From Phoronis australis (Eukaryota > Animalia > Phoronida), in NCBI GenBank assembly GCA_002633005.1, contig NMRA01000723.1, positions 116,675 through 180,674 of the forward strand: a stretch of DNA of 64,000 bases, given 5' to 3'. Below are positions 8,702-39,012 of the stretch, in pieces. Under the pieces are notes generated by a model. It ran no database searches and was not told the origin of the DNA. It saw only the letters and a list, made by a program, of their open reading frames with translations. The translations under genes and the position numbers were made by a program. Numbering within the stretch: position 1 is the stretch's first letter; each line of letters begins with the position of its first letter.

Positions 8702-10162
8702 GTATGTGTTGAATTGAGGGTACTTACATTCTCAGCTGCGTATGTGCTATATGTTGGTCTGCCTTTGTATGTAATGTTCACAGAATACTCTGAATGTTGA
8801 GTACCAAGAAATGACTTTACTGGGAACGGATGGTGTTTTTATGGCCCCACATATATTTATGTGGGGCCATATTGCTGTCATCACTGTTTGAATGTCCGCG
8901 GCTGGTTGCACAAAGCAGTCCTAAATAGTGGGTCAACTATACATTCCTTAACTTTTCACCTCATTTGTGTACTTGTGCAAACACTGATTGAACTTTCTAA
9001 TACCATTTTCCTTTCATTACTATGTCCATTTTAGCTTTGATACACACCAAGAATAAACTCTATGTTGAATTGATTTCTCAATATTAATGAAAGTAAACAC
9101 AAACTTAGTCTTTAACTTAAAGATATTCCATGAAAAGATCTCTATATTTTCATGCAATACTCAAATTTCACATTGTTGTCACTGTAGAAAACTTGGCAAC
9201 AGTTTCCTTAAATAACCTCTGTCTTTGCCCAGCTGAGTTGAAAAAACACTGTTACCTGCATAGCTAATTGTGTTTTCTGAGTTGAAGTTAACTGGCATTT
9301 TTCGTAGTGGCTATTCCATTAGAATCGGTATGGAAAGGCACTTGAAATAACAAATTGTGGTGGTTGTGTTCATAAAAAATCAATAATCACTAGTTGTTGT
9401 TCTAACTTGTAAAGTATATTAATTATTGTTTGTAGTGGTGTTGTTATCCATAAATGTGATGCAGTGGGTATTATCACCTGTTCAGTGCAACAAAGTACGT
9501 ACACACCAAACCAAATTTTCAAGTGTTATTTACAATGAATTTGTTTTGCGCTACAAAACATTTCCCTACTGATAACTCTAAATGAGCCATACTGGTTGCG
9601 ATTTGAATAGCACAAGCAATAAACGAGTTTGATCACTACCGCTGGCTGATAGTGATTTCCCTAATTGAAAACTTTTCGGTAATAGTCGGTTATAGAGAGA
9701 ACCAGTTTGGTGCCCGTTATTTAGTGGTGAGATTTGGTTCTCAAAATGTGGGCACATTATATCCGACCATGACCCACTTTTCTGCATTGTCACACAATAC
9801 ATTGGTTTTGCTTGCACCTATAGTGTCCTAAGCTGAGTTCTTGTCTTGATGATCTAATAACTTTTGTAGTTTATGAATGGGAATTGAGATATGTTCTTGT
9901 AAAGACGAGGATAATTGATGTCCGTATTTTGGAATGTTCTGTATCATTAGTCATGGCAACACTTTCCTTTACACAATCATCTTACATTGTACAACTTAAA
10001 TACATTATTGAAATAACTATGAAATGTTTGACTGTTTTTATACATCTAAAAGCCTAATGTTTTAGTTAAATCTGTGCTGCCTGCTGTTCTCAATCTCCCA
10101 ACAAGTGAGAGTTCCCTGTCCAGGTCACTATACTGAATACCACCCTCACTTACTCCTTCCAG

Positions 10163-10607
10163 GTAGACTACCGACAGAAGTCGGCAGCTGCAGGTCGGAT
10201 TCCCACCAACTACCTGCGCCGTGAACTCGGCCCGTCTGACAGAGAGATTCTTGCTTCACGTCTCATTGACAGATCGGTCCGCCCCCTGTTTCCACTTGGA
10301 TATCTTTGTGACACCCAAATTGTTTCTAATCTCTTGGCTATAGACGGCATTAACGATCCCGATGTTATCAGTATCAATGCGGCATCTGCTGCTCTTGCTG
10401 TGTCCGACATACCTTGGAACGGGCCCATAGGAGCTGTGCGTATTGGCTGTATAGACAACGAAATGGTGATGAATCCAACTCGTAAGCAACTGATGCACAG
10501 CACACTGAATCTTGTTGTGACATCAACTGCTCAGAACCTGGTAGTTATGTTGGAAGCGTCGGCAGAAAACATGCTGCAGCAGGATTTTATGAAGGCCATA
10601 AAACTGG
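10163..10607 (+). CDS. PNPT1: PNPT1 coding exon 3
   Basis: ccttccag|GTA...G|gtaatg, 445 nt; '[21 protein letters not shown]...[13 protein letters not shown]...[25 protein letters not shown]'. Confidence 0.96.
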
Positions 10608-10920
10608 GTAATGTTTCTGTTTTATTGAACCTACAGCATTGTTAAGTTTCCAGTGTTTTATTCTATGGAAGATGACTAGATATTGCAGGATGATGCCTGG
10701 TGTTACATATGGACTGGTTATCTTTTGGCCATTTCGCTTATCCTTGATTCACCTCCAAATGAACCATGTGTACAGTAACCATAGCAACAAATTCTGTCTA
10801 TACTTATTGCCATCTTCACTTGCACTTGTATTGGCCCGTAAAAACGTTGCACTCAAAACAGTTGATGTAGAGAACTTAAAACTAGTAATGTGTTGATGGT
10901 TTTGTGGTTGTAGCTTACTG

Positions 10921-11387
10921 CAAGGCTTGGAATTTTCCGCGGAAACGCGGATTTCCACTTTTTTCAAATGTTCTGTCCGCGCATTTTATTATATTTCCGC
11001 GTAAATCGGATTTGATATAAAATTTCCGCGGCAAATTCCTTTCTTACCGCGGTGTGCCGATGACGTTCACCTCGAAAAGCGGAAGTTACTCTTTATGTTT
11101 CGGAGGAATGTAAATTGTCAACATTGCCGGGACAACTGGTATAGCGTGGTGAGATTTTCAATGGCGTTTCGTGTGATTGTAAACAGCGGTGACAAATACT
11201 ACGGCTCTGCAGAGTGGACGGACGAGCTAAAAAGACGCAGACGCATGCTACTGATGGTGGTAACGTTTTTTAAGTCCCGATTTTTGTCGGCGAAAGGTTT
11301 ACATCGACTATTTCAAGGCTGGGTAGCGCGCATGTTTTGGGCCGTAAAAGTTTCTGCGTTTTTTGTCATTGGTCATTCCAAGCCCTG
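10921..11387. mobile_element. hAT-like MITE (467 bp) with 6-bp TSD in PNPT1 intron 3
   Basis: TIR CAAGGCTTGGAAT / ATTCCAAGCCCTG (12/13); TTACTG directly on both sides (10915-10920, 11388-11393); subterminal CCGCG repeats. Confidence 0.8.
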
Positions 11388-11706
11388 TTACTGTTAATGT
11401 TGTCTGTTTTATAAATAATTTCTATGCATAAAGAAAATATTGATAGTAAAAATAATAGACGTGTGCCTGTAAACGCATGTTTTGGTGAGCATTTGCCACT
11501 GTCTCTGACTGTTTTTATTTTTGACGGCATAACTTCAGACCTGTTTATAATGGTAGTTTTTCATTAATTGGGTTGTTCAGAAAAATGAGACTGGTGTGCT
11601 GTAACAAATTGTTTCCAGTTTCCAGGTAGAAATGTAACATAGTTACTATCACTTGGTAAACTGTTAACTGTACAAGTGTCTCACTCGGTTTATTGTTGCA
11701 TTCTAG

Positions 11707-13298
11707 GTGTAAAAGAAAGCCAAGCAATTGTTCGAGGTATTGTAGACTTACAAAAACTTGTAGGCAAGGAGAAAAGAGAATTCAGCCCTGTGAGTGAACT
11801 ATCCCAGGTCATGTTGGAAGCCTGTTCTAGTCTGGCACAGACACGTCTCATGGAGGTGTTCAGTGACTATACGCATGACAAGTTCTCACGAGATAATGCG
11901 GTAAAAAACGTTATGGAGGACGTTGTTGACAAACTCAAAGGCAGTTTCCCAGAGACAGAACCGAGTGTACTCATTGAGTGCTTTAATAAGGTGTCCAAAG
12001 GTGTGTTTCGTGATTTAGTGTTAGATGGTGAGAAACGATGCGATGGGCGTACCAGCAACATGCTGAGGCCTATCTCATGTCAAGTGGACTTGTATCCCCC
12101 ATTACATGGGTCGGCATTGTTCCAAAGAGGACAAACTCAGGTTCTTTGTACTGTGGCATTTGATTCACTTGAGTCGGCTGCAAAGTCTGACTCGGTGTCA
12201 GTATTGACTGGAGGTATTAAAGAGAAGAACTTCATGCTGCACTATGAATTCCCACCCTACGCGACCAATGAATTAGGTCGGCCTGGAATGATGGGAAGGA
12301 GGGAATTGGGCCATGGTGCATTGGCCGAGAAATCGCTTCGCCCCGTAGTTCCTGACAAGTTTCCCTTCACGATTAGACTAACGGCAGAGGTCCTCGAGTC
12401 CAATGGTTCATCATCTATGGCGTCAGCATGTGCCGGAAGCTTGGCATTGATGGACGCTGGAGTACCCATCTCAGATGCCGTGGCTGGAGTTGCCGTGGGT
12501 CTTGTAACACGTGTGGATGAAAATAATGATATAATTGAGTACAAGCTGCTCACTGATATCCTTGGTATTGAGGATTACATGGGGGATATGGACTTTAAGA
12601 TGGCTGGCACTAAACGAGGCATTACTTCATTGCAGGCCGACATGAAGTTACGCGGACTTCCTCTTGCCATTGTCATGGAGTCAGTGCAAAAAGCGACGGA
12701 GGGAAAATCGGAAGTTCTACAGATTATGAATCAAACAATTCAGCGAAATCGGGAAAAGCCCAAACCAAATCAACCGATCACTGAGAAGCTTAGTATTCTG
12801 GTAGCCAAACGATCGAAATTTGTCGGTGTTGGTGGCTACAATTTAAAGCGTCTCACAGCGGAAACTGGTGTGATGGTCTCTGTCGTTGATGACACAACTT
12901 TTGAAATTTTTGCCCCTAATCCGGCGGCAATGGATGAAGCAAAAGAGAAGGTTGAACAACTCTTAGCTGAGGAAAGGGAACCTGAACTAGAGTTTGGTGC
13001 TATTTATCAAGGAAAAATTGTTGAGATTCGTGACAGTGGTGTCATGGTGGAACTGCATCCCCTAATCAAACCAGCTTTAGTACACAATTCACAGTTGGAT
13101 CAGAGAAAAGTGAGTCACCCAAGTGTGCTCAGTTTTGAAGTTGGTCAAGAAATATCAGTCAAATACTTTGGTCGAGATCCAGTCACGGGGCAGCTGAGGT
13201 TGTCTCGGAAGGTCTTGTATACGCCATCTAGTGGCGTTGTGAGGACTCTTGGACAAACAAAGTCATCAAGGACTAGCGAGAATGGAAGTGAGGTGTGA
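11707..13298 (+). CDS. PNPT1: PNPT1 coding exon 4 (helical domain, second RNase PH, KH and S1 domains; stop codon)
   Basis: ttctag|GT completes Gly (phase 1); motifs [54 protein letters not shown] 'VGVGGYNLK' and S1; total CDS 2304 nt = 767 aa. Confidence 0.97.
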
Positions 13299-13410
13299 CC
13301 TTGAGCTTTTCATTTACTGCTGGGGGATGTAGTTTTAACTTAGAGTGACCAGATCATAAAGTCAGAATAGTCGTATTCCTTCTGCTGCTTACTTTTTTCC
13401 TGATACCAAT

Positions 13411-17098: not shown

Positions 17099-18861
17099 GT
17101 TGTACACATTACCCCCACCAATAGAAGCTCTCTGAATCATGCAGTACATGGAACACCAGGGCGAAAGTGGTCATCGTAGCAAAAAATATAAAATAAAGCA
17201 TCTGTTATTGCTAAAAAGATAACAAAAATTCTCATCCTGTTTGAATAAAAAAATTTCACACAACAAAAACAACTATGATATTATATCAACTCAATAGACT
17301 TTGAATACGTGTGCCATGTTACAGAACACATACACGCAGACAATCACTCACACATCATAGCTTTCAACTTGACAACATTAAACAGGGAACAACTCTCTAC
17401 CTACTACATGGCAAAAATTCCGCGAAGCTCTAGCCATGGTATATCATACACCGCGTGTTCCAAATATCTATGAGGTAGCCATTTTTGATTCTAAACTTTC
17501 CAAGTGAAGCCATGGAACTAAAGCCAACAGGCGCCTGTGCACAAAATAAAATAAGTCTCATTCAAATCTCAACACCTTTTGGCTTTTGATAGTGGTGCAA
17601 AACTGCCACACACTTGACCAGTCCTGATAACTGAATAGCAAGCCAGAAAGAACATAAAGGCACAAACATTTCCCATGTAAAATACAAAATTTAGTGAAAA
17701 TAACATTACATTGCTAATAAACGACTTATCATGTTCTTGTACTACATAGCCTAGCTAATTTAAAAGTGTGTGCAGCAATAGTTCACTATCTACGCTACCA
17801 CGCCACACTATTGAGCAAGTTTATGGAATAATACACGTTTTAGTACAGAACTAGATAAGCCTAGTTTCCATGGAAATATTAAACAACAGAGCAGGAAACA
17901 TTAAGGAATTTGTGAGAATGATTTTGAAACAACAGAACAACGTGAAAAGCATGTTAAATAAACAGTTTCAGTGCAGCGCTCCAGTGACTACTTTCAATAC
18001 ACCCACTCTACAGCACGGCAAAAATGACACGGGTGCAACCCAGTTAAGCCTTATGGGACAAAAATCAGTGGTGACTATAAAACACATCCCAAAAATTCAT
18101 AGTGCTAACTTATGAATAGATCTGAAAATGTTACATATGGACATTTGATATGGCAAAAGAGTGTCCACAGTAAACATAAACAACAGTAGCAGCCTTCCTT
18201 CACTGATGGACTGACACACTTACATATAATACTGCTAACATTGGTCCTTGAAGCAGGGACTGCCTTTATACATAACAAAAATAAGCAACAACACAAAATG
18301 TGAATAGAAAAAAAAACCAGCTCGACAGCAGTCAGAAGTTAACGATGAAATGAACAACGGCTGCAAGTGTAAGTCCCTACGCTGAAAATTTGTGAAAAAG
18401 TCTTTTCAGCAGTAATGCTGACAGTGTTTCATTACAGCTTCAAGCAACGAGGGTTATGTGGTGTGTATAACGTTAGATGCGCGCGATACTAAAATGGCAA
18501 GGTGGAGATTCTACACAGCACGAGGGGTTAAAGAGAATGGTGACTGATCAAGCTCTAGCTGTGAAGAATAAAACAAAACGAAACGTAACAAAGGCATAAA
18601 CAAACTACACTAAATTATGACATGATATGCTCTCAATCAAATAACTCGACTAAGCCACACGAAAATGAAATCAATATCAATTGTAAATTATGATTGGATA
18701 ATAACAACGAGAATACTTGACAATAACATGTACGGCTGTTCACATTCTACAAAAGCTTTTCGATTCTTTTCATGGAAATCAAAATTAAACCCAAAGCTTC
18801 TTAAATGTATGCGATAACAGCCAAAAACAGTTCAAACTTTAAGCAGAGGTAGAAGTTTATG

Positions 18862-18922
18862 CAACTGCAATACAAGCTCAGTGCACTGTACAACTGCAAT
18901 ACAAGCTCAGTGCACTGTACAA
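18862..18922. repeat. 29-bp direct duplication in the RNF38 3' UTR
   Basis: CAACTGCAATACAAGCTCAGTGCACTGTA x2. Confidence 0.9.
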
Positions 18923-20246
18923 ATCCCAATGCCTAACGACAGTCGAGTTTTTGCTCAACCTTCAGAACTCATTATTGGGAGATTGTGAACAAAGAAACCA
19001 GGTTATGACGACCACCCCATGTGCAAGCTGTCATCGACAAGCAACGGTTCAAGTTGTGATTGACATGCGTTCATGACGACTTAGAAGAGCAGCAAAAAGG
19101 TTTTAAAAGAGCTAAAAATCCCCCCGATGACTCTCCAGGAGGAATAGTCTGCCGAGGTCAGCTGCTTATTTCTATACCATCAGAAACAGACTAGACTTGG
19201 CACTCTAGAACCCAGTAGCGAGTCGATGACAGCTTTAACACGTTACTGGACTTGGAATTAGCGTGAAATGAACTCAGAATCAACAACAACACGTGACGTG
19301 AGCAGGGTGATGTCAACATTTAACTACAAAAAGTAGAAAATTCACAACTTAAGTCATAGAATGTGCTCCAAACTTTGGCAACATTGCTCCAGATCAAAAA
19401 CCCACCCCGTTGTGTACATAGTAATATAAGCAAGCTTTGCCATATGAGACCCTCCCAGAGTGCGAAAACGCAGTAGTGTGTTGTTGGCAAGCTTGCATCC
19501 AGCAAGACACAACCTAAATAATACTGGCCAATCAAAACGAGGAAGTAACCCCACTTGCAACAACACAAGCCAGAGAAAAAGCCTCCCCAACATCAACAAA
19601 TACACAGCCACGTTTACAGCAAGAAGCCCACTCTGGGAACACTGAAGACTTTTGGTGTGTTTCTACCTTCACACGTATGTGTACAAGTACAGTAGAAGAA
19701 CCGACTTACAATATGAGCAGCCAGCCAGGAATCCTTTGAGGACTTGGGGTGGAGAGACTAGTACTAAACATAATAAAAAATTGCCTTTTGCCTAAAATTG
19801 CCTAATGAAAATGGAGAAATTGCCATCTACATGTACAAGTAATTTTGCTTTAACCTCCCAATGCGTCACAATGCAACACTTGCGGCGAGATATCTGCCGC
19901 GTACACATCTGACAAGTGATTGTGATAGATTATACAGAATGAGGCGGTAGCATATAACAAACACAGACGAGGTTAAATAGGAAATGTCCACAAAATGAAA
20001 ACTAGAAAATGCCCTCTAAAGTACATGAAACAAAAAACTTGCGTGAAGTTGTGAAAATTTACAAAACCCTAGGATTGCTATATACCTAAGAAAGATACAC
20101 AACACTCAGAAAAGCACAACAATCCACCGTATTTGTGGATGGTGTTCAATCCCCACAATAACTGATCAGCATTTAGTCAATTTCCCAAAGCAGCATTGGC
20201 AAAGGTTGGAGGTCAGCCTTGATGATTGCACAGGCGTTCGGAGACT

Positions 20247-20312
20247 CTAATCTGATTGGCTGGACGCCGTCTCCGATGCATCAGCCCGACAAATTGGGCA
20301 AGTTCTATTGGT
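20247..20312 (-). CDS. RNF38: RNF38/RNF44-family E3 ligase, last coding exon
   Basis: tttttcag|ACC; TNRTCPICRADASETASSQSD* completes the RING-H2 and matches the family C-terminus 'NRTCPICRADAS'. Confidence 0.95.
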   Translation of the reverse strand, partial: TNRTCPICRADASETASSQSD

Positions 20313-20560
20313 CTGAAAAAGATAGAGCTTCAATAGCAAAATGCACAAAAATTCAGGCATGGTTAAGCAACCCAAGTAAAACACAAGAAAATACCTACAA
20401 CACTTTCTTTCTTTTAAGGTCTGAGCAGACAATGTACTGAGAGTAAGATGAGAAAAAAATCCACTAAACCTAAAGACTTTTCAGGTAATTTGAACTTGTG
20501 CATTAATCTTATTATTATTGTTAAAGAAAAGAAATCTCCATATGTAGAAAATCTCCATCA

Positions 20561-21139
<579 letters not shown>

Positions 21140-21143
21140 TTAC

Positions 21144-21244
21144 AAGAAGTGCAGCAGTAAACCAGGGTATGGAGGTGGCGGTGGCACCGAGCGCCATCTG
21201 TTGGTCCGGTTTGGTGTGCGGCGCACAAAACGAGAGTATGGGCC
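21144..21244 (-). CDS. RNF38: RNF38/44 exon
   Basis: ttacag|GGC...TT|gtaagt, 101 nt; GPYSRFVRRTPNRTNRWRSVPPPPPYPGLLLHF(L); phase fits both neighbours. Confidence 0.9.
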
Positions 21245-21367
21245 CTGTAAAAGACATTTCCCAATTATTCTGTAAAACAATTCAAGAGACAGTAATTAAA
21301 AACATATTAGCATATTAAATAGTAATTAATGCTACTGAAAGCCTTAGAAAGGTCAACAAAAACTCAC

Positions 21368-21517
21368 ATAGACATCATGTGGCTGCGGGTGAACGGCTGG
21401 CTCTTGAAGAAGGACTGGTGCCGACGGGTTGATTGTGGGGCCTCTGTGGATTGCACTAGGAATGTGGTAGGTACCCGGACGGCGATCACCGATCACATGG
21501 ATGTCATTCTCCTGGTG
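21368..21517 (-). CDS. RNF38: RNF38/44 exon
   Basis: ccctcag|CAC...TAT|gtgagt, 150 nt, phase 0-0; HQENDIHVIGDRR...EPAVHPQPHDVY (alternative in-frame AG 6 nt downstream). Confidence 0.85.
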
Positions 21518-21868
21518 CTGAGGGTAGAGACGCACATTTTCACAGCACAAAATAAATGGCACCACAAAGCACAAAGACAAAAAGACTCGATGTCAACAGC
21601 TAGCTACAGCCGATAAAAGTTGTCAAACTATTTGTAGTTTCTTTTGTTCAGTGTTCAAACATTTTTAATATGATTGCAAGCCTAAGGATAGGGACTTAGG
21701 CAAATAAATTCATTCTCTTATGACTTAATACAAGTTACAGAAGTTCAGATACTACCCTTACATTGTCGAGCATAAGAAAACCAATCTCCGTCTGGAGTTG
21801 ATGTTTCTAATGAACTACACCGCATTCACTTATAAAACCATGATATGAACAATAACAATGAGACTTAC

Positions 21869-22168
21869 ATGATGATGGTGACCCTGCAAGTGTTGTGTCG
21901 TTGGCACAAAATGGGTCGTATGTAGTGGGTTGGGGTGATGCTGCAGATGAGGGGGCATGTGTACCGGCTGCATGTGCTGTGGCAGGTGCTGGGCCATAGG
22001 CAGGCCGCAGGCGGGGATGTGCTGGATACTGCAGGCTGGGAACTGTACGGTGCACCCTGGGATGGTCCAGGTGGGCTGCGCCATGTGGCCCGTGGTGGGC
22101 AAGTGGTGGGCAGCGGTGCACACTGGGATGGCATAAGGCGCCATCGTGACCGGCGTAGAAACAGGAAC
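21869..22168 (-). CDS. RNF38: RNF38/44 Pro/His-rich exon
   Basis: ttcacag|GTT...CAT|gtaagt, 300 nt; 'IPVCTAAHHLP...IPGCTVQFPACSIQHIPAC', the repeated PxC motifs typical of RNF38/44. Confidence 0.92.
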
Positions 22169-22991
22169 CTGTGAAAAGAGAAATTTATTTAAAGTAAATA
22201 AGCAGAATAATGAATGAAAATTTGTGAGCGAGGTCGACAATAAATTGACAATGACACAAAAATTCAACATGAAAACGATACACAACAAAGTAGCATACTC
22301 TCTAGTTGGTAATGCAGAGTCAAGACAGCTTGTACCATGATCTCGGGTCCTTCATTTGTGCCTGAGGGCATCATTTTCCCATTTTAAAACCTTTTATCCT
22401 CAGCATAGTTCTAGTTACAGGGTAAATTTATATGAGATTTTGGGTAAACAAAGTTTAGATTGTAAAAACATGCCAAGTCATTATTGCTAGCACAATACAG
22501 TAGTAGTTGTAGGAACAACAAAAATTTGAGAATACCACAACTACATGTAAAGTTGGTGACATAATTCTAATATAATCCACAAAAAATCTATATCAATAGT
22601 CATCAACTCAATCACATTAGTATTTCAGAGCAGTGCAAATGAAAATTAAAAATGAGTTACTGATTTGTTGATGCATTAATGATTTCATTGAGGCATTTCA
22701 CAATTAGTACTGAAACACTAAAATACCATGGGACTGTTTCAAGAAAAGTGATTCAGAAATTCTGTTTTGGGCTTCACGCGACTATTTATGACGCAATTTA
22801 ATAAGACTAAAGTGTTCAAGGAATACCCGTAATTGCTAGTTAATCGGATAATCAGTGTAAATTGTCATATGATAACAATTACATGGCAAATATTTTATGT
22901 TGTATTTGTTGCAGCGTAATACAAAACAAGGCTCCTGGTATACACAACAACTGCACTAAGTAAGGCTTCATAAGAGGCGTGGTCTACACAC

Positions 22992-23178
22992 CTGTGTCAT
23001 GTCAATAATGAAGGGGTGGTGGTGAGGTGCCTGATGAGGCAGGACTGCGGGGTGAATTTGTTGCTGAGGCATGGCTGCCTGTGGCTGGCTCATAGAGGGT
23101 GGTTGGAAGGCCCGCCGCTCTGGGGACTCAGACTGACGGAGAGTGTTCCGGTCTCGGGCACGGCGACGAGTGGTAGGG
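22992..23178 (-). CDS. RNF38: RNF38/44 exon (common acceptor for alternative upstream exons)
   Basis: ttttccag|C...CAG|gtgtgt, 187 nt; PTTRRRARDRNTLRQSESPERRAF...IIDMTQ; requires a phase-2 donor. Confidence 0.9.
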
Positions 23179-23551
23179 CTGGAAAAGAAAAAGAAATTCA
23201 TATAGCACAGGTTGAAAGCTAAATTCTGGATTGTCTTCTTAAATAAAAATAATGAGGAAAAGGCCAATAAAAGCAAAGAAGTCCAAAAGCCTAGATGAAA
23301 TAGGTTTTTGCACAGTGCTAGAGAGGAAACTAGAGGCGCATGAATTCAACACGTAAAATGATAATAGTAACACATCAGTTTGGATTTGTTAGCAAGTCAG
23401 AAAATATGTGGCTGCTGTTCTTGGCACTGCAGTACAAACATTAATTTTGACAGTAGACTGACACAAGTAGTAACTGTACAGCAATGAACACAGCTGTTAC
23501 TAAATGAATATACATCTAGGGAACGCAAGCTCACAACTAAATACACTGATC

Positions 23552-24968
23552 CTACCAGGCCGCTTGCAACTGACGACGGACACTGTTGAATACATCCTTA
23601 ATGGTCGCGATGAAGTTCCGCAGCATGTGGCGTGCATTCAACGATATGCCAATGTTGATAGCCTGACTACGCAACTGTTCCGCCATATGTGTGTCGACGA
23701 CACCATGCTGCACAACCGAACAAACAACAGATAAGGCCTGCTGGATGAACAGACGCTGGAGTTCAATTAGACCCGTCATATGACCACTGAGTAACGAGAG
23801 AGTGGCATCTTCAACGGTTTGCCCATGCCAGCGGCTGAGAGAGGCAAGCAGGGACCTTGTGTGGTCAAACGATGGGTTGAAGAGAACTTCTTGATACACC
23901 CATAGGAATGACTCAAAATAGAACTGAGAGACCAACTGCAAGAACAAGGGAGGAAGACTGTCATCTGCCAGAGGCATTAATGGAGGAGGCATCTGTGGCA
24001 ACAATGGGAATGGCATCGAAGCTATTGGAATCGATGGCAAGACTGGAAGAAACAGAGAGTGAGCATTCACAGTATTGGCTTGGATGCCATCCGACTGCAG
24101 GCGGTATAACGCTGCTGTGAATGTGCCTTCGGAGTGGCCACTGGAGTTCAATGGCGATGGCACAAAGCTGTCAAATCCAGCTCTTTGGTCATCGTAATAC
24201 TCCCTCAAATTTATTCTGTCACCTGTCGAACTACAGTCTGTATCCCGTGTGTGATTACTTTCATGCAAATGATGACTACTTGTGGAGGAGTTAGAACATC
24301 TACTTTCAGGAAAAGAGTCAGTATGTCCAACCATTGGGTACGCGCTGTGTTGGACAGACCCGCAGCCAGGTAGCGACACCATACCTTCTTGTCTATTACC
24401 AACAGGCGACATGTTGGGCAGTGTAGACCAACTTCTACATGTAGCCATATCTTCTTGTCTGTTTCCAGAAGATGACATGTTGGTGCCTTCAAACCAGAGA
24501 TTCTCCTTGCTGTGTCCGGACACATTTTCAATGTTATGTTGTCGGTACTCATCAACGGGATACCTTGATCCTAACAACGCTTCCTCATGATTGACACAGT
24601 CTGGTTGGCTACAGCCAAGTGAATGGTTATCCTTTACATACGATCCATCCATATTTACTTTCTTTCCACAATCAACAGAGGAGGATTGTTTGTTAAAACT
24701 TTCAGAAGACCCTGACTGAACATGTCCAAACTCAGCTAGACAATACTGCTCGTTTTCTTTATCACCTTGATCACCAATTTCATTTGGAACATTGTAGCAA
24801 TGAGCAAGTGAGTCACCAAACAGTGGAACATCTACAGAGCTGACTGAGCCAATCAACTGAGCATTGTGAGGCAAAAACGGCCCACAAAAACTATCCAATT
24901 TTTTCTGTTCAAAATTCTTAATGTTATTGCTATTGTAAGTGGTATCACCGTCAGAATCTTCACTGCGG

Positions 24969-25006
<38 letters not shown>

Positions 25007-26323
25007 GCTGTTGTCTTCATATTTACAGTCATTCCGATGACAATTATTGCCATTTCTGTTGCTCATCTTGTTGGCATGCAGTTCATCCATGCTGTCATTA
25101 TTGTGAAATGAATGGTTACTGAACTCATAAAATGCAGAACAAGGTGTCGTGTTTCTCACACAGCTGACTGGTGATTCTTTCACGGGGTGGCGTCTATCTC
25201 GACAGTTCACAATGGATGAATTACTACGACGTACGTTAAGAGGAGCAGCAACACCACTTAATGAGTAATACACTCGGTTGTGCTTTTCGCTGGCTGTCCG
25301 TGGACGAGAAGAACTGCCATTGAATTTGCGAAGCCGAGGACACAATCCATGCCCAGCCAAAGTTTCTTCTTTGGCAAGTTCCCACTTGGTAGCGGACTCA
25401 GGAAGCATGACCCTGAGCTTTTTGTTATTAGCTTCCAGAGCATTCTGAGTGTGTCTAGGCAAGATCTTTTTCTTCAGTTTATCGATTTGTTTCAAACGAG
25501 CACAGCCATTGACGAGAGCACCGCATGATGAACCTGGACCATCTGTCCACTCAGATCCATAGAAACAACACATGTCACAGTCTGGTGGTTTGGACTTCGT
25601 TCTCTTTGTCGTGTCGAGTCGAAGCAGTGATAGCCCGTTGGCCAAAAATTTCATCTTTTGAAAATTGATTTTGAAATCACTGTTCATGGAAGTCCGAGAT
25701 GTGTGTTTTCTAGCGCTAGCAAGTCTCACCCGTTGTTTTCCCACATGTGACAATTTGTTTCGTGAATGCTGATCAACACTGTTACTGACCAGGTCACTGG
25801 AGAAACCGCAAGACTTCATGTTGGTTGACTGGCGATGATTATTGAACAAGTAATACCGACGTTGACTAGACAGCCAGTCGACAACTTTGGAACAATTACA
25901 AGCAGGAGAGTTCGCACAGGCACACAACTTGGAGCAACGGGTGTTATCAGAGGCTGCGATGCATGTTTCTACACCCACTTTCTCATTTCCATTGGGTACT
26001 ACAGCTCCCTGGGATGGATAGAACGAGTGGCCACACTCACCATCAGACCTTGGCCGTTGATTAAACGGCTTCGCCGAGACCAAGTTGGCAGAAGTCCACG
26101 ACAAAGGCTTGTCTTGTGGCTGGGTTGTCGGTTGCTTGAATATGTGCCCAGCATTTTGTGGAGTGGCTGCAGCCAAGGAACCACCTTGCTGTATTTGGCT
26201 TCTGGTAGACTGGATGGTATTACCTGGCCTCTTGCTAGACTTTATACGTAGGTCTATAAACTTTTTGTTTTTTACCTCAGCAAATGCCATAGAAATGTCA
26301 TGAATATTCTTTTCAACTGCCAT
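23552..26323 (-). CDS. 923-codon intronic ORF; probable giant alternative first coding exon of RNF38 (spliced form ends at 23556)
   Basis: 2.77 kb without a stop in otherwise stop-rich intron DNA; in-frame TAA two codons before the ATG; ends GCC TG|GTAGGA, a phase-2 donor matching the 23178 acceptor; no RT or transposase motifs seen. Confidence 0.8.
24968..25006. repeat. (AAC)13 in-frame poly-Asn tract within the 923-aa ORF
   Basis: GTT repeat on the plus strand encoding N13. Confidence 0.9.
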
Positions 26324-27301
26324 GCATTATGCAAAAAGCAAAATAGCAGTAAATGACAACTATATGTAGGTCCACTATAGACAGACCACACGATTTCTCA
26401 GTCAAAAGAAAATTAAATTGGTGATTGTTATGTCACGTTTCCTTGGAGAGGCTGGATAAACAATTAACTCACAGACATGAGTGTTGCATGATGCAACAAT
26501 CGAAAAAGAAAAACAATTAACGGCATGTACAAAATCCAACAAGTGAAATTCACCATCACGGAAATGAAACCATAAGTGCATAAAAACACAGATTATCATT
26601 TCTACAGAATTGTTCTAGACTACAGCCACATGACTTTAAATTGTTGTTGGTGCAAGAGTTCACAGCAGTTTTTCTCAGTGCTGAGTATTACAAATCTCAA
26701 AGCACATAGTGAAACTAGAGTTAAAAGAAAATTAAATACCAATTTCAAACAAAAGAACCATCAACAGTAGCCCAAGAACTGGGACGGACATAAAAAACAG
26801 GTATAGGGCAGTGCGGGGAGGAACCACAGACAAAAGATAACTAATCTGGTCTCTTACTGGTTGACAGAACAAAGCAATATTCGGACATTGCAAATGGTTG
26901 GAAATAGAGAAATGCTTTTCTGAACTACCACTACTACTACAAAACAACAAAATAAATCGATGTACTCCACACAACTTCATGTTCTGTGACACACTCGGAA
27001 TATCCAGACATCAAATAGAACAAAACAATGAACCATACTATTTCGACTCATTCCGGCACCATCCTTGAACAGTGCCACAGTGTACGGTAAGATCTTGCCA
27101 ATGAAGATACGTAGCATCACATTAATGCTTTATAATGCTCATGTTCTTTACCATAACTCCATCAGAAAATATTTTGAAAAACTCAAGCATTCACAATGTT
27201 AGAAGACCATGAAAAATGAAAAAAAGTTGATTTTGGCAATTATTTTTGTCCAAAATTAGTGAGATTTTAACATAACTATTAGTCATGACATAAACTCATA
27301 C

Positions 27302-27495
27302 CTCCTCCTATTACGAGGGGTATTGCACCTGTCGTTGGTCGGTCTACGCTGTTGCGGTTGAGACTGAGGCATTGTCCGCCTGTCGACGGCAGAAGAGTCC
27401 CAAGACTGAGACGGGGGTGGTGGACTGGCTGTCTGCGTCAGATCAACTTGGGCATTGTGATTCGTTTTCCTTCTCTTGCGAGTCGGGCTCTCAGT
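27302..27495 (-). CDS. RNF38: RNF38/44 conserved N-terminal exon (basic NLS-like motif)
   Basis: ttgcag|ACT...AG|gtatga, 194 nt; TESPTRKRRK...TASPPPP...RCNTPRNRR(S) matches RNF38 'SPSPKRQRL...SASPAPSPP...RCNTPARNRRSP'; AG+C=Ser joins the 23178 exon. Confidence 0.92.
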
Positions 27496-30400
27496 CTGCA
27501 ATGAAATAAATTAACATGACATGAGTCTTGTACAATGGACATAACAGTTGCTCAACATCTCCAACAGGAAGTATGTAGTGTAGATCACATGGGTAGTGTA
27601 GTGGTGGTTTTTCAATTCCGACTAATTAAACACACACATCTAATGTCTGCCCAGCAAAGTAAAGCCAAATGACCCCTGTGCATGTTGTTTTAGTTCAAGG
27701 AGTGAATTGTCAGACTGTCATTAATGTTTTTGGTAGCAAAGTAATGAGAAACACCAACACCAAGTTCCACCAACTGTGAGCACATGAGATTTGATGAAGC
27801 TGTCAATTTGTCAGTTGTAATTGTCTTAACTGGAGCATTTTTTGGCACTAATGACTATTACCTCACAATCACTACAAAAGATATACCAACCTTTGCGAAG
27901 GCCTCACATTTCAGCAAATAACATTTAAACTGTCTACTTTTAACTCTTAAAAGTTTACATTTTCTGAATCGTGGATGACTAAAATATTAATTCATGCCCG
28001 AAATGCAGTATAACCGTTAATAATCGCATGACCGCCATTGTTGTGAACATAGTATATTTTGCTCTGAACATGAATTTCCACTAAACTTAGTGTGGGCAAC
28101 TTTGTGCTTGAACAACATGTGGTTAATGTCAATGTACAAGGAAGAGCAGCGTAGATTTTTATTTATCCACAGATGTATCGGCCCCTGAAGGCACTTTTTA
28201 AGATATCAATAGCGGATATCTCCATTGCTCAAAGAAAACAAAAAAATCTGAGAAAGGTTACCTTGGCCATAGACCCTAAAAGAAGCCTACATATTTTCAT
28301 GAGAATCAATCCAAGTAATAAAAAGAAATCGATGTTCAAAACTGCTTAAAGTATCAAAAGTCAAAAGACCTGAAAATGGCCGATAATTATTGTCCTCGTA
28401 ATTAAAGTCAATAAATATTGTAAGTAGTAAGAATAAATTTATACCTTTATACAGAAAGGTTGACAATTGCTTTGAAAACTATATTTTACAAATTCAAATA
28501 CACATCATGTCACCTTATAGTCATTTTATTTCACAACCGTTGGTACATTCCTGTAATAGCGTAACATTTTTTGTTTGAAAAGCCATTCACAATAAGGTGA
28601 AAGCAAATGGTAAACAAATACACTTCACGACAACATGTGAGAAAAGATGTTCTTGCAATTCCATTTTTAGTTGACTGCTGAGAAAACTCCCTACGTTGGA
28701 ATTCAGTTTGATACCTTTTGCTCTTAAGGAACAAGATGCTGGGACACCCACTTGACAGCCCATGACTTTATGCCTCATAACAGAATTGAGATCTAAACAT
28801 GGAGGTCACTGCAGCAGTTCTCACAAAACATTGGAAGTGAGTTACTGAGTCAAGTGCAACAGTTCCAGAGCCTGTGTAACACAAGCTTGTCCATATCTCA
28901 AGTTACATTAACTACCACAATGTACAAACCCACACTGAATGAACTCTGCTTTCAATGCCTTTTCACCAAACAAAAGCCAACATGCAATACCCAGTATGGC
29001 ACAGGAAATCATTTCATAATTATAATATATAATTGTAACACAACCACCATGTCACCAGTAGATTGTGAATAATTAAAACTAAACTTTGAGCTGATGGTAG
29101 CGGTTGCAGGTGAGTGGCTTCTATGGCTATTGCAGGATGGACTGCCATCAGCTGCAGGGGGTTGTGAAATATAGATGAAGTGAGAGAGAGAGAGAGAGAG
29201 AGAGTGTGTGTGTTCATTGTAAGACACATTTGCCTCGGATGACTGATGCAGGCTGATTGTCTGGTGAGCTGACAATGAAGTAAATAATGCATAAAACTGT
29301 CTGCTACTATTTAACTGGCATAAGTGGGAAGTGGTGTTCCTGTAACAGAGTGATGAGCGGCCCTGTTGGGCATTAGTTAACAAAGCCTGTCTTCCAATAT
29401 TCTACATGTCCATCAAAAGACTATTAGCAGTGATTGGTTGAGAGTCACGTGATCTTGTAAAACAAGCAGCCATTGTGATAAATGTCTTTTATGAACACTG
29501 TGTCATGAATGGCGGAACTAAAAAGCTAAAAGTACTGTGAATTACATCTTTGCACTACAACTACAAAGTATTCCACCAATTATAAATATGTCTTTTTGGA
29601 AATTACTTAAAGTATTGCCAACAACGCACCTGGCGTCTCCAACAAGAAGTCAATACAAAATAAATTGCACTTGTTGAGTTTCATGTGAGTCACAGCAAGC
29701 TAAGCCAACAAAAGCTGATCACAAGCACACAGTATTAATATCGTTCGTACTGACTGCAGTGGGGCTCTATCAAAATACTGTTTGCAAGCTCTGTACAAAA
29801 TCTACTAAAACACAATTATTAACCTTTTTTGGAGATTTTCACCTTGAAAATTAAAAAGTTCAGTTTTGGCAGTTGTGCAAAATTGTTGACATTTTTTCAT
29901 AATTAGGTCATTCTATTCCTGAATTGTAGCTTATCAAAAGGTTATGAAAAGTGGCCAAGTGGAATTGAAAGCTACAGAAGTTTTCAAAAAGTTGACAAAA
30001 TTTCATCTCACTGTAAATCGACAGAATTTCAAAGATTAAAAATTTTCCCTCCGTTAACCGTCTTAGTTTCCTTCAGAGTATTCTCCATAGCTTGAATGAA
30101 GTCAGGCAAAAATTGATGAGTCTGTTTGAAAACTGATAGTATCTTTTACAGACTGTTTTGCATGTAAGTCAACTTTAAGCTATATAGCTGCATCAACTTC
30201 CGGAACTTGCAATCTTTGATTTAAATCAATTAACTTGATCCGTGCATCACTGTCTTCAAAATGGCCTCCCAGTTGAGGTTGACCAAGCAGACCACAGGTC
30301 ACTGGCAGTCTAGTAAACATCTGACATAGACCAATGCTAGGCATTCAGTTGAACACCCTCTACATGTTCCAGTTTACACCATTGCTGTATAAACTGATCA

Positions 30401-36502: not shown

Positions 36503-37972
36503 TAGAAAAATCACTATTTAATTTTGAAAATGTCTTCAAAATCAACCACAAATGTCAGCGAATGAATAAGTAATGAATGTACTACCATCCAACAACAAAA
36601 GCCTGAAACGACACTGAATCACTTGTTGAACAGAATGGCTCAAGTCAAGCACAAATTCTTATGGCAAGTTCACTTGTACTTCAATATTATAGTCTGTAGT
36701 CACTGACCATTTTGAGGTTTTCTTTTTTCAACCTTTTTATAACCAAGCACACAGGTCTCCAGGCAAAATTAATCCTGTCAGAAACTGAGGGTCAGTCAAA
36801 CAACTGACGACCTAAATTTCCAATTATAAAGATTACAAGATCAGCATGAAAGTGTTTGCTTTACTGACCACAAGTCATGTCATTGTTTCATAAAGCTAGA
36901 ATGATTTGGACATTGTTTTCAATAAACACAGCTGTGCTTTAGTGGGATGGGTTGGCCTTAACATTGTTTGCTATTCAGAAATCTGCTGGCAGCTGAGCCA
37001 AGTGTGCTGAATCAACCTTGAATCAGACAGGATTGCGCACAAAATATCAAATAATATGTCAGCAGCTGAAAACGCTCAGAATGAACTTTGGATCACATGG
37101 CTTTGAGCTAAAGATCTCACAATTAAGCTGTGGAATTAATGTTTCTCACAGTTTAAGTACTGTCTGGACAACATTTTCTTCAATAGTATCCTGTTAAGAC
37201 ACTGCTTTGTGCACCACTGGCAAATGATTCGTCTTGTAGTTATAACTGTGTTTCACCTAATGTTCAGCTGGCTAAAGAACAAAAATCGAATTACGCCTTT
37301 TACTATCAGAAAATCGGCCCACAATATTCCATACCATGATAGGATTCTACTTCCGTTACCAACCATTACAGTAAAGAATATCACAAGACCAATTTTATGA
37401 GAGAAAAAGGTCCACGTAATTTGATTTTCACGTTTAGCTAATCAAACAGGGCGAAATACAACTTTTAAGAGTCACATGACAAAACAAATTAAGTTCATGA
37501 AGAGCGATAAAACTTCTATCAAAAAAGGTCCCATCTTTCAAACCAAGAACACAATTTTGTCTTTTCTTAAGACAACAGATAAAAAGTGCTGAATGTTGTT
37601 GAATCTAAGCAACATCTTTCACACGTTCCCTTGCCATCTTCACATCACAGTTCATCCCCTTCCAGATAACACTGCCATGAAATGGACCAAACCCTTCTGT
37701 TCTTTGGCCAGGCTTAGTCAGAACTGTTGCCTGGTAGCCATGGCAACGGATAACTGGCTGATTACATGCAGCAGGGCAGACAGGGTTGTAAATTTCAAAG
37801 GCTACACAATTTACATGTGCAATAAACAGAGTCAGCCAGATGGTGTCTTGCAAGCTGAGCCAAGGGAGCATGGGAACTTCACCAGGTGTAAAAGTATCAA
37901 AAGGATACAGAAAATGACCTAAAACTCAACATATTTCAAAAAGGTCGGGTGTGTTTCATGACAAATGACTTG

Positions 37973-39012
37973 AAGGCCAAAGTAAAAAAAATTGGTCTTA
38001 CATCCCACCAAACAATTGTTAAAAGATAATTCAATCCCAGTTTTACAGCAAAAGTTCCAAGTCTCTGGGAATATGCTGCTAGTTTCTGAGATAATTTAGT
38101 ATTTTCTAGACCATGATGTGGCATCCATTACATGGGTATAATTCTGAAGTTGGGGCAAGATCAAATTTAAGAATGAAGTCTAAAGTTACTTTTCCTCAAA
38201 CAGACCACTCACTGCTCATAAGGGCCTTTCACACTCACTCACTCACTGCTCATAAGGGCTTTCACACTCACTCACTCACTGCTCATAAGGGCCTTTCACA
38301 CTCACTCACTCACTGCTCATAAGGGCCTTTCACACTAACGTTGACGCATTGATGTTTTGAGGAGTTGCGGTCACTATGAACGGTTAACTTCGGTCCTGGA
38401 TCGAAGTTAAGAGCGCCCAATGAATGACTGTTATACATCCATAAAACTTTAACAAGGACGTCAAGAACACATTACNAAGGCCAAAGTAAAAAATTTGGTC
38501 TTACATTCCACCAAACAATTGTTAAAAGATAATTCAATCTCAGTTTTACAGCAAAAGTTCCAAGTCTCTGGGGATATGCTGCTAGTTTCTGAGATAATTT
38601 AGTATTTTCTAGACCATGATGTGGCATCCATTACATGGGTATAATTCTGAAGTTGGGGCAAGATCAAATTTAAGAATGAAGTCTAAAGTTACTTTTCCTC
38701 AAATAGACCACTCACTGCTCATAAGGGCCTTTCACACTCACTCACTCACTGCTCATAAGGGCTTTCACACTCACTCACTCACTGCTCATAAGGGCCTTTC
38801 ACACTCACTCACTCACTGCTCATAAGGGCCTTTCACACTCACTCACTCACTGCTCATAAGGGCCTTTCACACTAACGTTGACGCATTGATGTTTTGAGGA
38901 GTTGCGGTCACTATGAACGGTTAACTTCGGTCCTGGATCGAAGTTAAGAGCGCCCAATGAATGACTGTTATACATCCATAAAACTTTAACAAGGACGTCA
39001 AGAACACATTAC
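37973..39012. repeat. ~500-bp tandem duplication (37973-38475 / 38477-39012) joined by a single N; probable uncollapsed haplotypes
   Basis: Near identity; n at 38476; copies carry 4 vs 5 units of the internal minisatellite. Confidence 0.85.
38206..38412 (+). repeat. ~34-bp minisatellite (4 units) running into a truncated Harbinger-like MITE; 5-unit version at 38709-38950
   Basis: Unit CACTGCTCATAAGGGCCTTTCACACTCACTCACT; the last unit continues as MITE sequence (ACTAACGTTGACGC...). Confidence 0.85.

Follow-up and report, generated by a model that had tools for sequence, protein, structure and literature searches.

The RNF38 locus and a long open reading frame in its intron

The window, i.e. 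the whole stretch of 64,000 nt of Phoronis australis contig NMRA01000723.1 analysed here, carries on its minus strand an RNF38-type gene and, on the same strand, a long open reading frame (ORF) that lies inside the 4123-nt intron separating two RNF38 exons (Table 1). Assignment of the host gene was based on 562 matches at E ≤ 1e-30, of which the named ones were mostly RNF38- or RNF44-like; 120 of the 562 were listed, and all counts over 120 given below refer to these listed matches. The short form is 47–55% identical to the 15 best-scoring homologues, while the RING exon is 69–70% identical to mammalian RNF38 and was recognised by Pfam as zf-RING_2 (E 4e-9). In the long form described below, the RING-H2 pattern with its eight spaced metal ligands is found at aa 1240. 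A basic SP-x-RKRR/SPSPKRQ pattern, as in the ordinary exon at 27302, was present in 83 of the 120 listed homologues. The YEELL-type motif close 5' of the RING agrees on visual comparison with the consensus of 21 residues in PMC5764321, and in that paper a YEELL motif plus a RING-H2 define the CTL family.

The ORF comprises 924 codons from stop to stop (23552–26326), compared with 29–86 stops in each of the five other frames, and 922 stop-free codons would be expected by chance with a probability of about 4e-23 at the local base composition. It occurs once within the 64-kb window. Its ATG at 26323 is preceded two codons upstream by an in-frame TAA and followed by a second in-frame ATG at 26290, while an out-of-frame ATG at 26327 has a better −3 base than the one at 26323. 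The exon ends in CTG/GTAGGA, a phase-2 donor of the same phase as the GAG/GTATGA donor at 27302, and the joined frame reads QLQAA-C-PTTRRRARDR, giving a protein of 1293 aa (922 aa plus 371 aa from the common exons as defined by RNA). Joining the 27302 exon to the acceptor at 26316 instead reads AGT TGA, an immediate stop; weaker in-frame AGs occur deeper in the ORF, e.g. at 26234.

Table 1 Features of the RNF38 gene and of its probable alternative first exon, in window coordinates.
Feature	Position	Strand	Evidence
Last coding exon (RING end, stop)	20247..20312	-	RNA; 3' UTR to at least 18600
Common exon, YEELL-type motif and most of RING-H2	20615..20924	-	Pfam, RNA
Common exon (PPPYPGLLLHFL)	21144..21244	-	RNA
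Common exon	21368..21517	-	RNA
Common Pro/His-rich exon	21869..22168	-	RNA
First common exon (PTTRRRARDR...)	22992..23178	-	RNA, sequence
GT-AG intron, 377 nt, alternative exon to common exon	23179..23555	-	12 joint reads, X2 and X3
Alternative first exon, coding part (922 codons and 2 nt)	23556..26323	-	ORF; sense RNA
Conserved domain of ~144 aa, predicted five-helix bundle (isoform aa ~777–920)	23564..23995	-	phmmer, HMM, AlphaFold
Fast-evolving, likely disordered Ser/Asn-rich arm with Cys clusters	23996..26323	-	blastp empty against homologues' arms
AAC microsatellite, in-frame poly-Asn	24968..25014	-	sequence
Upstream ATG, out of frame, 4 codons, overlapping the start codon	26313..26327	-	sequence
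5' UTR with the likely start of transcription (no single base assigned)	26324..26500	-	X2 read fade at ~26360–26500
Ordinary RNF38 exon, ESPTRKRRK (NLS-like); the long form skips it	27302..27495	-	27302→23178 joint

A transcript contig (run X1, see below) carries 121 extra bases 5' of the 27495 exon that are absent from 18600–28600, and neither tblastn nor HMM searches found an upstream RNF38 coding exon in the window; the ordinary start thus lies past a very long intron or is divergent. Three further observations concern the surroundings of the gene. A PNPase (PNPT1) gene at 10100–13300 on the plus strand is convergent with RNF38 and intron-poor, its RNase PH, KH and S1 domains being encoded in one last exon of ~1.6 kb; animal PNPT1 genes usually have many exons. 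Positions 27206–27270 are a short dispersed intronic repeat that attracts hundreds of reads of other loci on both strands. At ~37970–39000, a head-to-tail duplication of ~500 bp, both copies of which contain a 34-bp tandem array, surrounds a single N at 38476 and is likely an assembly artefact.

Splicing and expression of the alternative exon

Four public runs carrying one species label were used, one as contigs (X1) and three as stranded raw RNA (X2–X4, ~18–19% of each run read), with joints listed at three or more reads. The joint 23556→23178 was found with 4 reads at 4 different starts in X2 and 8 reads at 7 starts in X3; it was at zero in X4 and in X1, whose contigs do not cover the alternative exon, so that its zero does not mean absence. 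The ordinary joint 27302→23178 occurred in all four runs (11, 6 and 15 reads in X2, X3 and X4 and one contig in X1), and at the three-read threshold 27302 was not joined to any site inside the ORF. Comparison of X2 and X3 with X4 for the long-form joint gave a Fisher p of 0.0034, a sample contrast that mixes tissue, sex, stage and individual, as the X4 genotype differs from that of X2/X3 and the labels are coded.

Read depth followed the same pattern. Mean sense depth of the alternative exon was 11.7 in X2, 6.7 in X3 and 0.16 in X4, corresponding to 0.51, 0.27 and 0.004 of the common-exon depth. Since intron depth on either side was ~0–2, the reads in the exon derive from mature RNA, and as the few sense reads of X4 carry the same letters as the window, the X4 individual possesses this DNA. 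The alternative exon is therefore spliced onto the common RNF38 exons in some samples only. These results confirm the observation on which the initial annotation was built, namely a long same-strand frame between two RNF38 exons with a stop before its ATG and a phase-2 donor 377 nt from the acceptor at 23178 (12 joint reads in two of the three raw RNA runs); the predicted length of 1293 aa, the stop created by the nearby acceptor and the mutual exclusion with the RKRRK exon were likewise borne out, the latter by the RNA joints and by the species pairs described below.

A conserved domain at the end of the exon

A phmmer search with the ORF against 1.84 billion representatives returned 38 proteins (best E 6e-16, 10 at E ≤ 1e-10), and in 37 of them the alignment fell within aa 756–920, one starting from aa 659. 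Most of these proteins stop soon after the domain and carry no RING, so that annotation can readily overlook the exon or treat it as a hypothetical gene of its own. Pfam contained no family in the ORF and none shared by more than two of 34 domain members; a search of proteins by word index with the complete ORF gave nothing among 4401 candidates, the ESM Atlas gave no usable match, and the best hit in a PDB sequence search was CFAP20 at an unconvincing E of 0.0028.

When a profile of the domain was run on the 120 listed RNF38 homologues, it matched six, all nemertean or bivalve (Tubulanus, Mercenaria, Saccostrea, Argopecten, Mytilus and Pinctada), and none of the vertebrate and arthropod models among them. 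When clusters were consulted for 30 of the 38 matches, Lineus X1 was added, the rest having no protein name or being called hypothetical. In all seven models, from two nemerteans and five bivalves, the domain ends just before the junction P-G-T-R-R-[RQ], and a Cys precedes the junction in Argopecten, Saccostrea and Mytilus as it does in the window. Long and short models part at the junction residue in the three species that have both database models to compare (Tubulanus, Lineus and Argopecten; all automatic annotations), with ESP-x-RKRR present in the short models and missing from the long ones. The window copy sits on a long branch (1.58) and remains unplaced in the domain tree; it keeps F802, W809, R824, L846, R899, M901 and F905, of which F802 and W809, in an aromatic-rich first helix, are invariant. 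One Liolophura protein (P0022, 1182 aa) has a PRC1/MAP65-type region (PF03999) fused in front, which is likely a gene-model fusion, and its length is not due to the conserved domain.

A metagenome scan with ten close homologues yielded 27 loci, several of them redundant. All 27 carried the domain, which was continuous in 26 (contig ends truncate two of these) and in L027 is interrupted at 2142–2497 by ~355 nt, a new intron or an insertion. In 25 loci, the other two being cut by contig ends, the exon is followed by CG/GT in phase 2, the phase having been read from the tails and presupposed by the donor pattern in the dN/dS step. RNF38-type exons lie downstream in 8 of the 27 loci. In L003, L004, L011–L014, L017 and L021, a PPPYPGFLLHFL exon or a divergent RING (39–52% identity) follows within 0.7–3.5 kb, and the Pro/His-rich middle looks shortened. 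No RNF38 match was found in the 2.3–5.6 kb downstream of L002, L006, L015 and L020. As the RINGs at the loci are only 39–46% identical to canonical RNF38, the comparison suggests that this clade may represent a divergent paralogue, with the exon taken as its start. According to PMC5764321, molluscs and annelids have up to three CTL paralogues.

For the 13 non-redundant loci with whole 5' ends, median pairwise dN/dS was 0.19 for the domain, 0.11 for an N-terminal helix described below and 0.55 for the linker between them, the values coming from 78 non-independent pairs at pS 0.4–0.54 and including L017, whose donor was mis-picked and whose domain was thereby shortened. These values show that the domain is under purifying selection in the metagenome-locus clade.

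Predicted structure and the N-terminal helix

AlphaFold2 with 34 sequences predicted five helices for the domain (17–45, 47–63, 67–103, 108–124 and 127–151; pLDDT 91.7, pTM 0.80). A Foldseek search of PDB and viral sets gave no match at E ≤ 0.001 (best E 0.5) and VIA none at Z ≥ 8, its best values being Z 7.2 (rmsd 4.9, 120 aligned) and Z 6.9 (rmsd 4.5, 123 aligned), with generic coiled bundles and the dynamin stalk (Z 6.9) as top rows. Such scores are the background for helical bundles and show neither a new nor a known fold. The initial annotation had mentioned a helical domain besides Cys clusters, and it is the former that gained substance, as the conserved C-terminal ~144 aa with 38 matches and five predicted helices. 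In contrast, the Cys clusters had to be abandoned as a conserved metal-binding module, no similarity having been found in any homologue's arm.

Inspection of the relatives further revealed a motif, W-x-x-[AS]-[YF]-x-x-[IVLM], in 46 of 64 domain-bearing sequences (near-identical cluster members included) versus 0 of 114 other RNF38 proteins, in most cases a few residues past the first Met; in 13 of 13 metagenome loci the Met stands 7 residues before the Trp. A matrix built from these 46 matches, and hence circular for them, scored in 50 of the 64, with a linker of 47–1337 aa (median 234). That the N-terminal helix and the domain occur together suggests a module made of two parts. For a homologue of 254 aa, the helix was predicted with pLDDT 74–85 and the linker mostly below 65, which fits docking of the helix on the bundle and also a stable isolated helix. 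In the window, the W-x-x-A-Y helix was found neither in the ORF nor in any of the three intron frames, and the best helix score upstream of the domain was −1.6, a value reached by 35% of shuffles. The comparison shows that this species has lost the W-x-x-A-Y helix and keeps the predicted bundle.

The first ~775 aa of the ORF gave no homologue, and blastp against the arms of the domain-bearing homologues was empty. By eye, the bivalve-type arms P0156, P0158, P0042, P0023 and P0032 share an extra short N-terminal motif, P-x-N-[FY]-V-P-x-x-Q-Q ... P-G-Q/R-[FY]-V-[FY]-[VI]-P, which the window lacks.

Proposed role of the long form and alternative explanations

We conclude, with a probability of roughly 80%, that a 2.8-kb exon with its own promoter is used in a sample-restricted manner and gives rise to a 1293-aa ligase in which a long arm and a predicted bundle replace the RKRRK start. 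The interpretation offered in the initial annotation is supported by these data, though it is now the C-terminal domain, and no longer the Cys clusters, that stands in the foreground. At the 5' edge of the exon, X2 depth falls from 21 at 26251 to 6 at 26360 and to less than 1 at 26500 (15.4, then 2.6, then 0.7 over the 5' UTR region), read cover tapering 50–100 nt 5' of the ATG, with the start site placed by Illumina read taper at a depth below 25. Neither a joint nor a loose end was seen at this edge at the three-read threshold, which leaves room for a minor upstream join, whereas the common exon showed 5–16 loose ends per run. This taper and the lack of spliced 5' ends point to a first exon with its own promoter, and we regard it as very likely that an internal promoter drives the alternative exon; the separate start proposed by the initial annotation is in this way supported. 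The restricted transcript skips the RKRRK exon and joins the long exon to the intact catalytic half, and translation of the long form from the ATG at 26323 or 26290 appears likely. The arm would likely be disordered and end in the predicted five-helix bundle, and catalysis is likely unchanged, as inferred from the RING-H2, YEELL motif and Pro/His-rich region common to both forms. The predicted bundle would most probably act as a surface on which an amphipathic helix, supplied by a partner or a substrate, can dock, and the ligase would thereby be retargeted in cells in which this promoter is on; we put such a retargeting surface somewhat above even odds. In most relatives, the likely occupant of this surface would be the exon's own W-x-x-A-Y helix. 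The RKRRK-type basic motif reportedly serves as the mapped NLS of RNF38. The long form retains basic clusters (aa ~241–250, 285–290 and 302–306, as well as PTTRRR), so that loss of RKRRK need not mean nuclear exit.

The main rival explanation holds that the domain is a module for self-association or scaffolding (a dimer, an oligomer or a membrane anchor) and does not dock partners. Helices of 25–37 aa, the aromatic-rich first helix with F802 and W809 and the generic coiled bundles and dynamin stalk in the VIA top rows are in keeping with it, as is the statement, in PMC12945521, that RING ligases are often oligomeric. However, the fold matches stay at the helical-bundle background, and the N-terminal helix is present in 46 of the 64 domain-bearing sequences and in none of 114 others, which speaks for a module of two parts; we consider self-association unlikely, if still the strongest competitor of a docking surface.

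Far less probable is splicing of the exon from an upstream RNF38 exon, as an internal cassette or in a mutually exclusive manner, instead of its use as a first exon under a separate promoter. A cassette would agree with the Pinctada model P0017, which has the RKRK exon and the domain together in one frame and indicates either cassette use or a mis-annotation somewhere, with the pyrimidine-rich AGs at 26396 and 26374 upstream of the ATG, and with the failure to find the gene's upstream exons in the window. Against it stand the clean 5' edge despite an X2 depth of 15–21, the in-frame stop before the ATG, the Met at a fixed 7 residues from the motif in 13 of 13 loci and the mutual exclusivity in three of three species pairs.

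We judge it similarly improbable that the long form is a decaying relic in this species, transcribed yet poorly translated or weakly constrained. The lost N-terminal helix, the long branch and the overlapping out-of-frame ATG might be read in this way, as might the variation in the arm: among 15 ORF variants in the reads, 11 were missense and 4 synonymous, compared with a neutral expectation of 4.2 synonymous (P=0.64). However, the 922-codon frame is still open, none of the 15 variants is nonsense or lies past codon 717 (a weak point at this small n), the domain keeps its seven residues from F802 to F905, and in two runs the long form accounts for between a quarter and a half of the expression of the gene. 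A long open frame together with neutral-looking variants indicates that the arm is held open while its sequence is not visibly constrained. That a transposon, a virus or a retrocopy inserted here and became an exon by chance, a concern raised in the initial annotation for TE and viral inserts and compatible with the single 2.8-kb exon, its AAC repeat and the small codon-position GC bias of the arm, is hardly credible and for the domain largely refuted, given that there is no Pfam match, no match in the viral fold library at E ≤ 0.001, a single copy in the 64-kb window and, across seven species from two phyla, an identical position and junction.

Returning to the own-promoter reading, a more far-reaching version can be formulated, which we hold tentatively and with the odds against it. 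The N-terminal helix and the bundle would form the two halves of a 'clasp', a type of module so far without precedent in E3 ligases, in which the helix docks on the bundle, closes a disordered loop of 47–1337 residues and gates a cell-type-specific RNF38; the module would predate the mollusc–nemertean split, would have moved in one clade to a fast-evolving paralogue, and its helix would have been dropped here so that a partner's helix can replace it.

Comparison with known systems

Previous work has studied RNF38 almost only as the short vertebrate form. The RING-H2, the YEELL-type motif, the Pro/His-rich region and the PPPYPG-LLHFL motif are shared between the window gene and RNF38/RNF44, while the long form adds a 922-aa first exon with a domain absent from Pfam. 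Alternative first exons are as such a known device. A description of this isoform or domain was not found in the literature searched, including the supplement text of PMC5764321, with picture figures and most subscription journals outside that search. For human RNF38, PMC7916862 gives a nuclear location and three predicted isoforms. Drosophila Murashka, a relative of RNF38/RNF44 compared here by description and not by sequence, is reported from cytoplasmic ER/Golgi-associated puncta, and no alternative first exon is described in the accessible part of that report (PMC12383540). Taken together, nuclear RNF38 and Murashka at ER/Golgi puncta indicate that location can vary within the family.

With respect to structure, FAT, vinculin tail and alpha-catenin, bundles that bind amphipathic helices, are all-helical like the predicted domain (Foldseek E ~1, VIA Z 6.0–6.3), but an rmsd of 4–7 Å or worse and an identity of ~4–15% make the comparison an analogy only. 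The closest counterparts are the automatically annotated long models of Tubulanus (LOC141900423 X1), Lineus (XP_064630475.1), Mercenaria (LOC123547138 X1) and Saccostrea (LOC134273846 X2), and further those of Mytilus (LOC134714992 X1), Argopecten (X1) and Pinctada (FSP39_018067), which are filed as 'uncharacterized' or 'hypothetical' without a domain name. They share with the window the domain directly before the junction and a variable arm in front of it. Most of them have the W-x-x-A-Y helix that the window lacks, and their arms, of 184–847 aa, show no detected similarity to the window arm.

RNF38 thus probably exists in a second, ancient form that has not been described before and that begins differently; with it, a conserved E3 ligase gains a domain without a family name and a regulated choice of isoform of long standing. 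The same catalytic end behind different fronts provides a natural experiment on the substrates and locations of RING ligases, and an arm whose length is free, flanked by a conserved element on either side, offers a test case for an open frame that is selected without constraint on its sequence.
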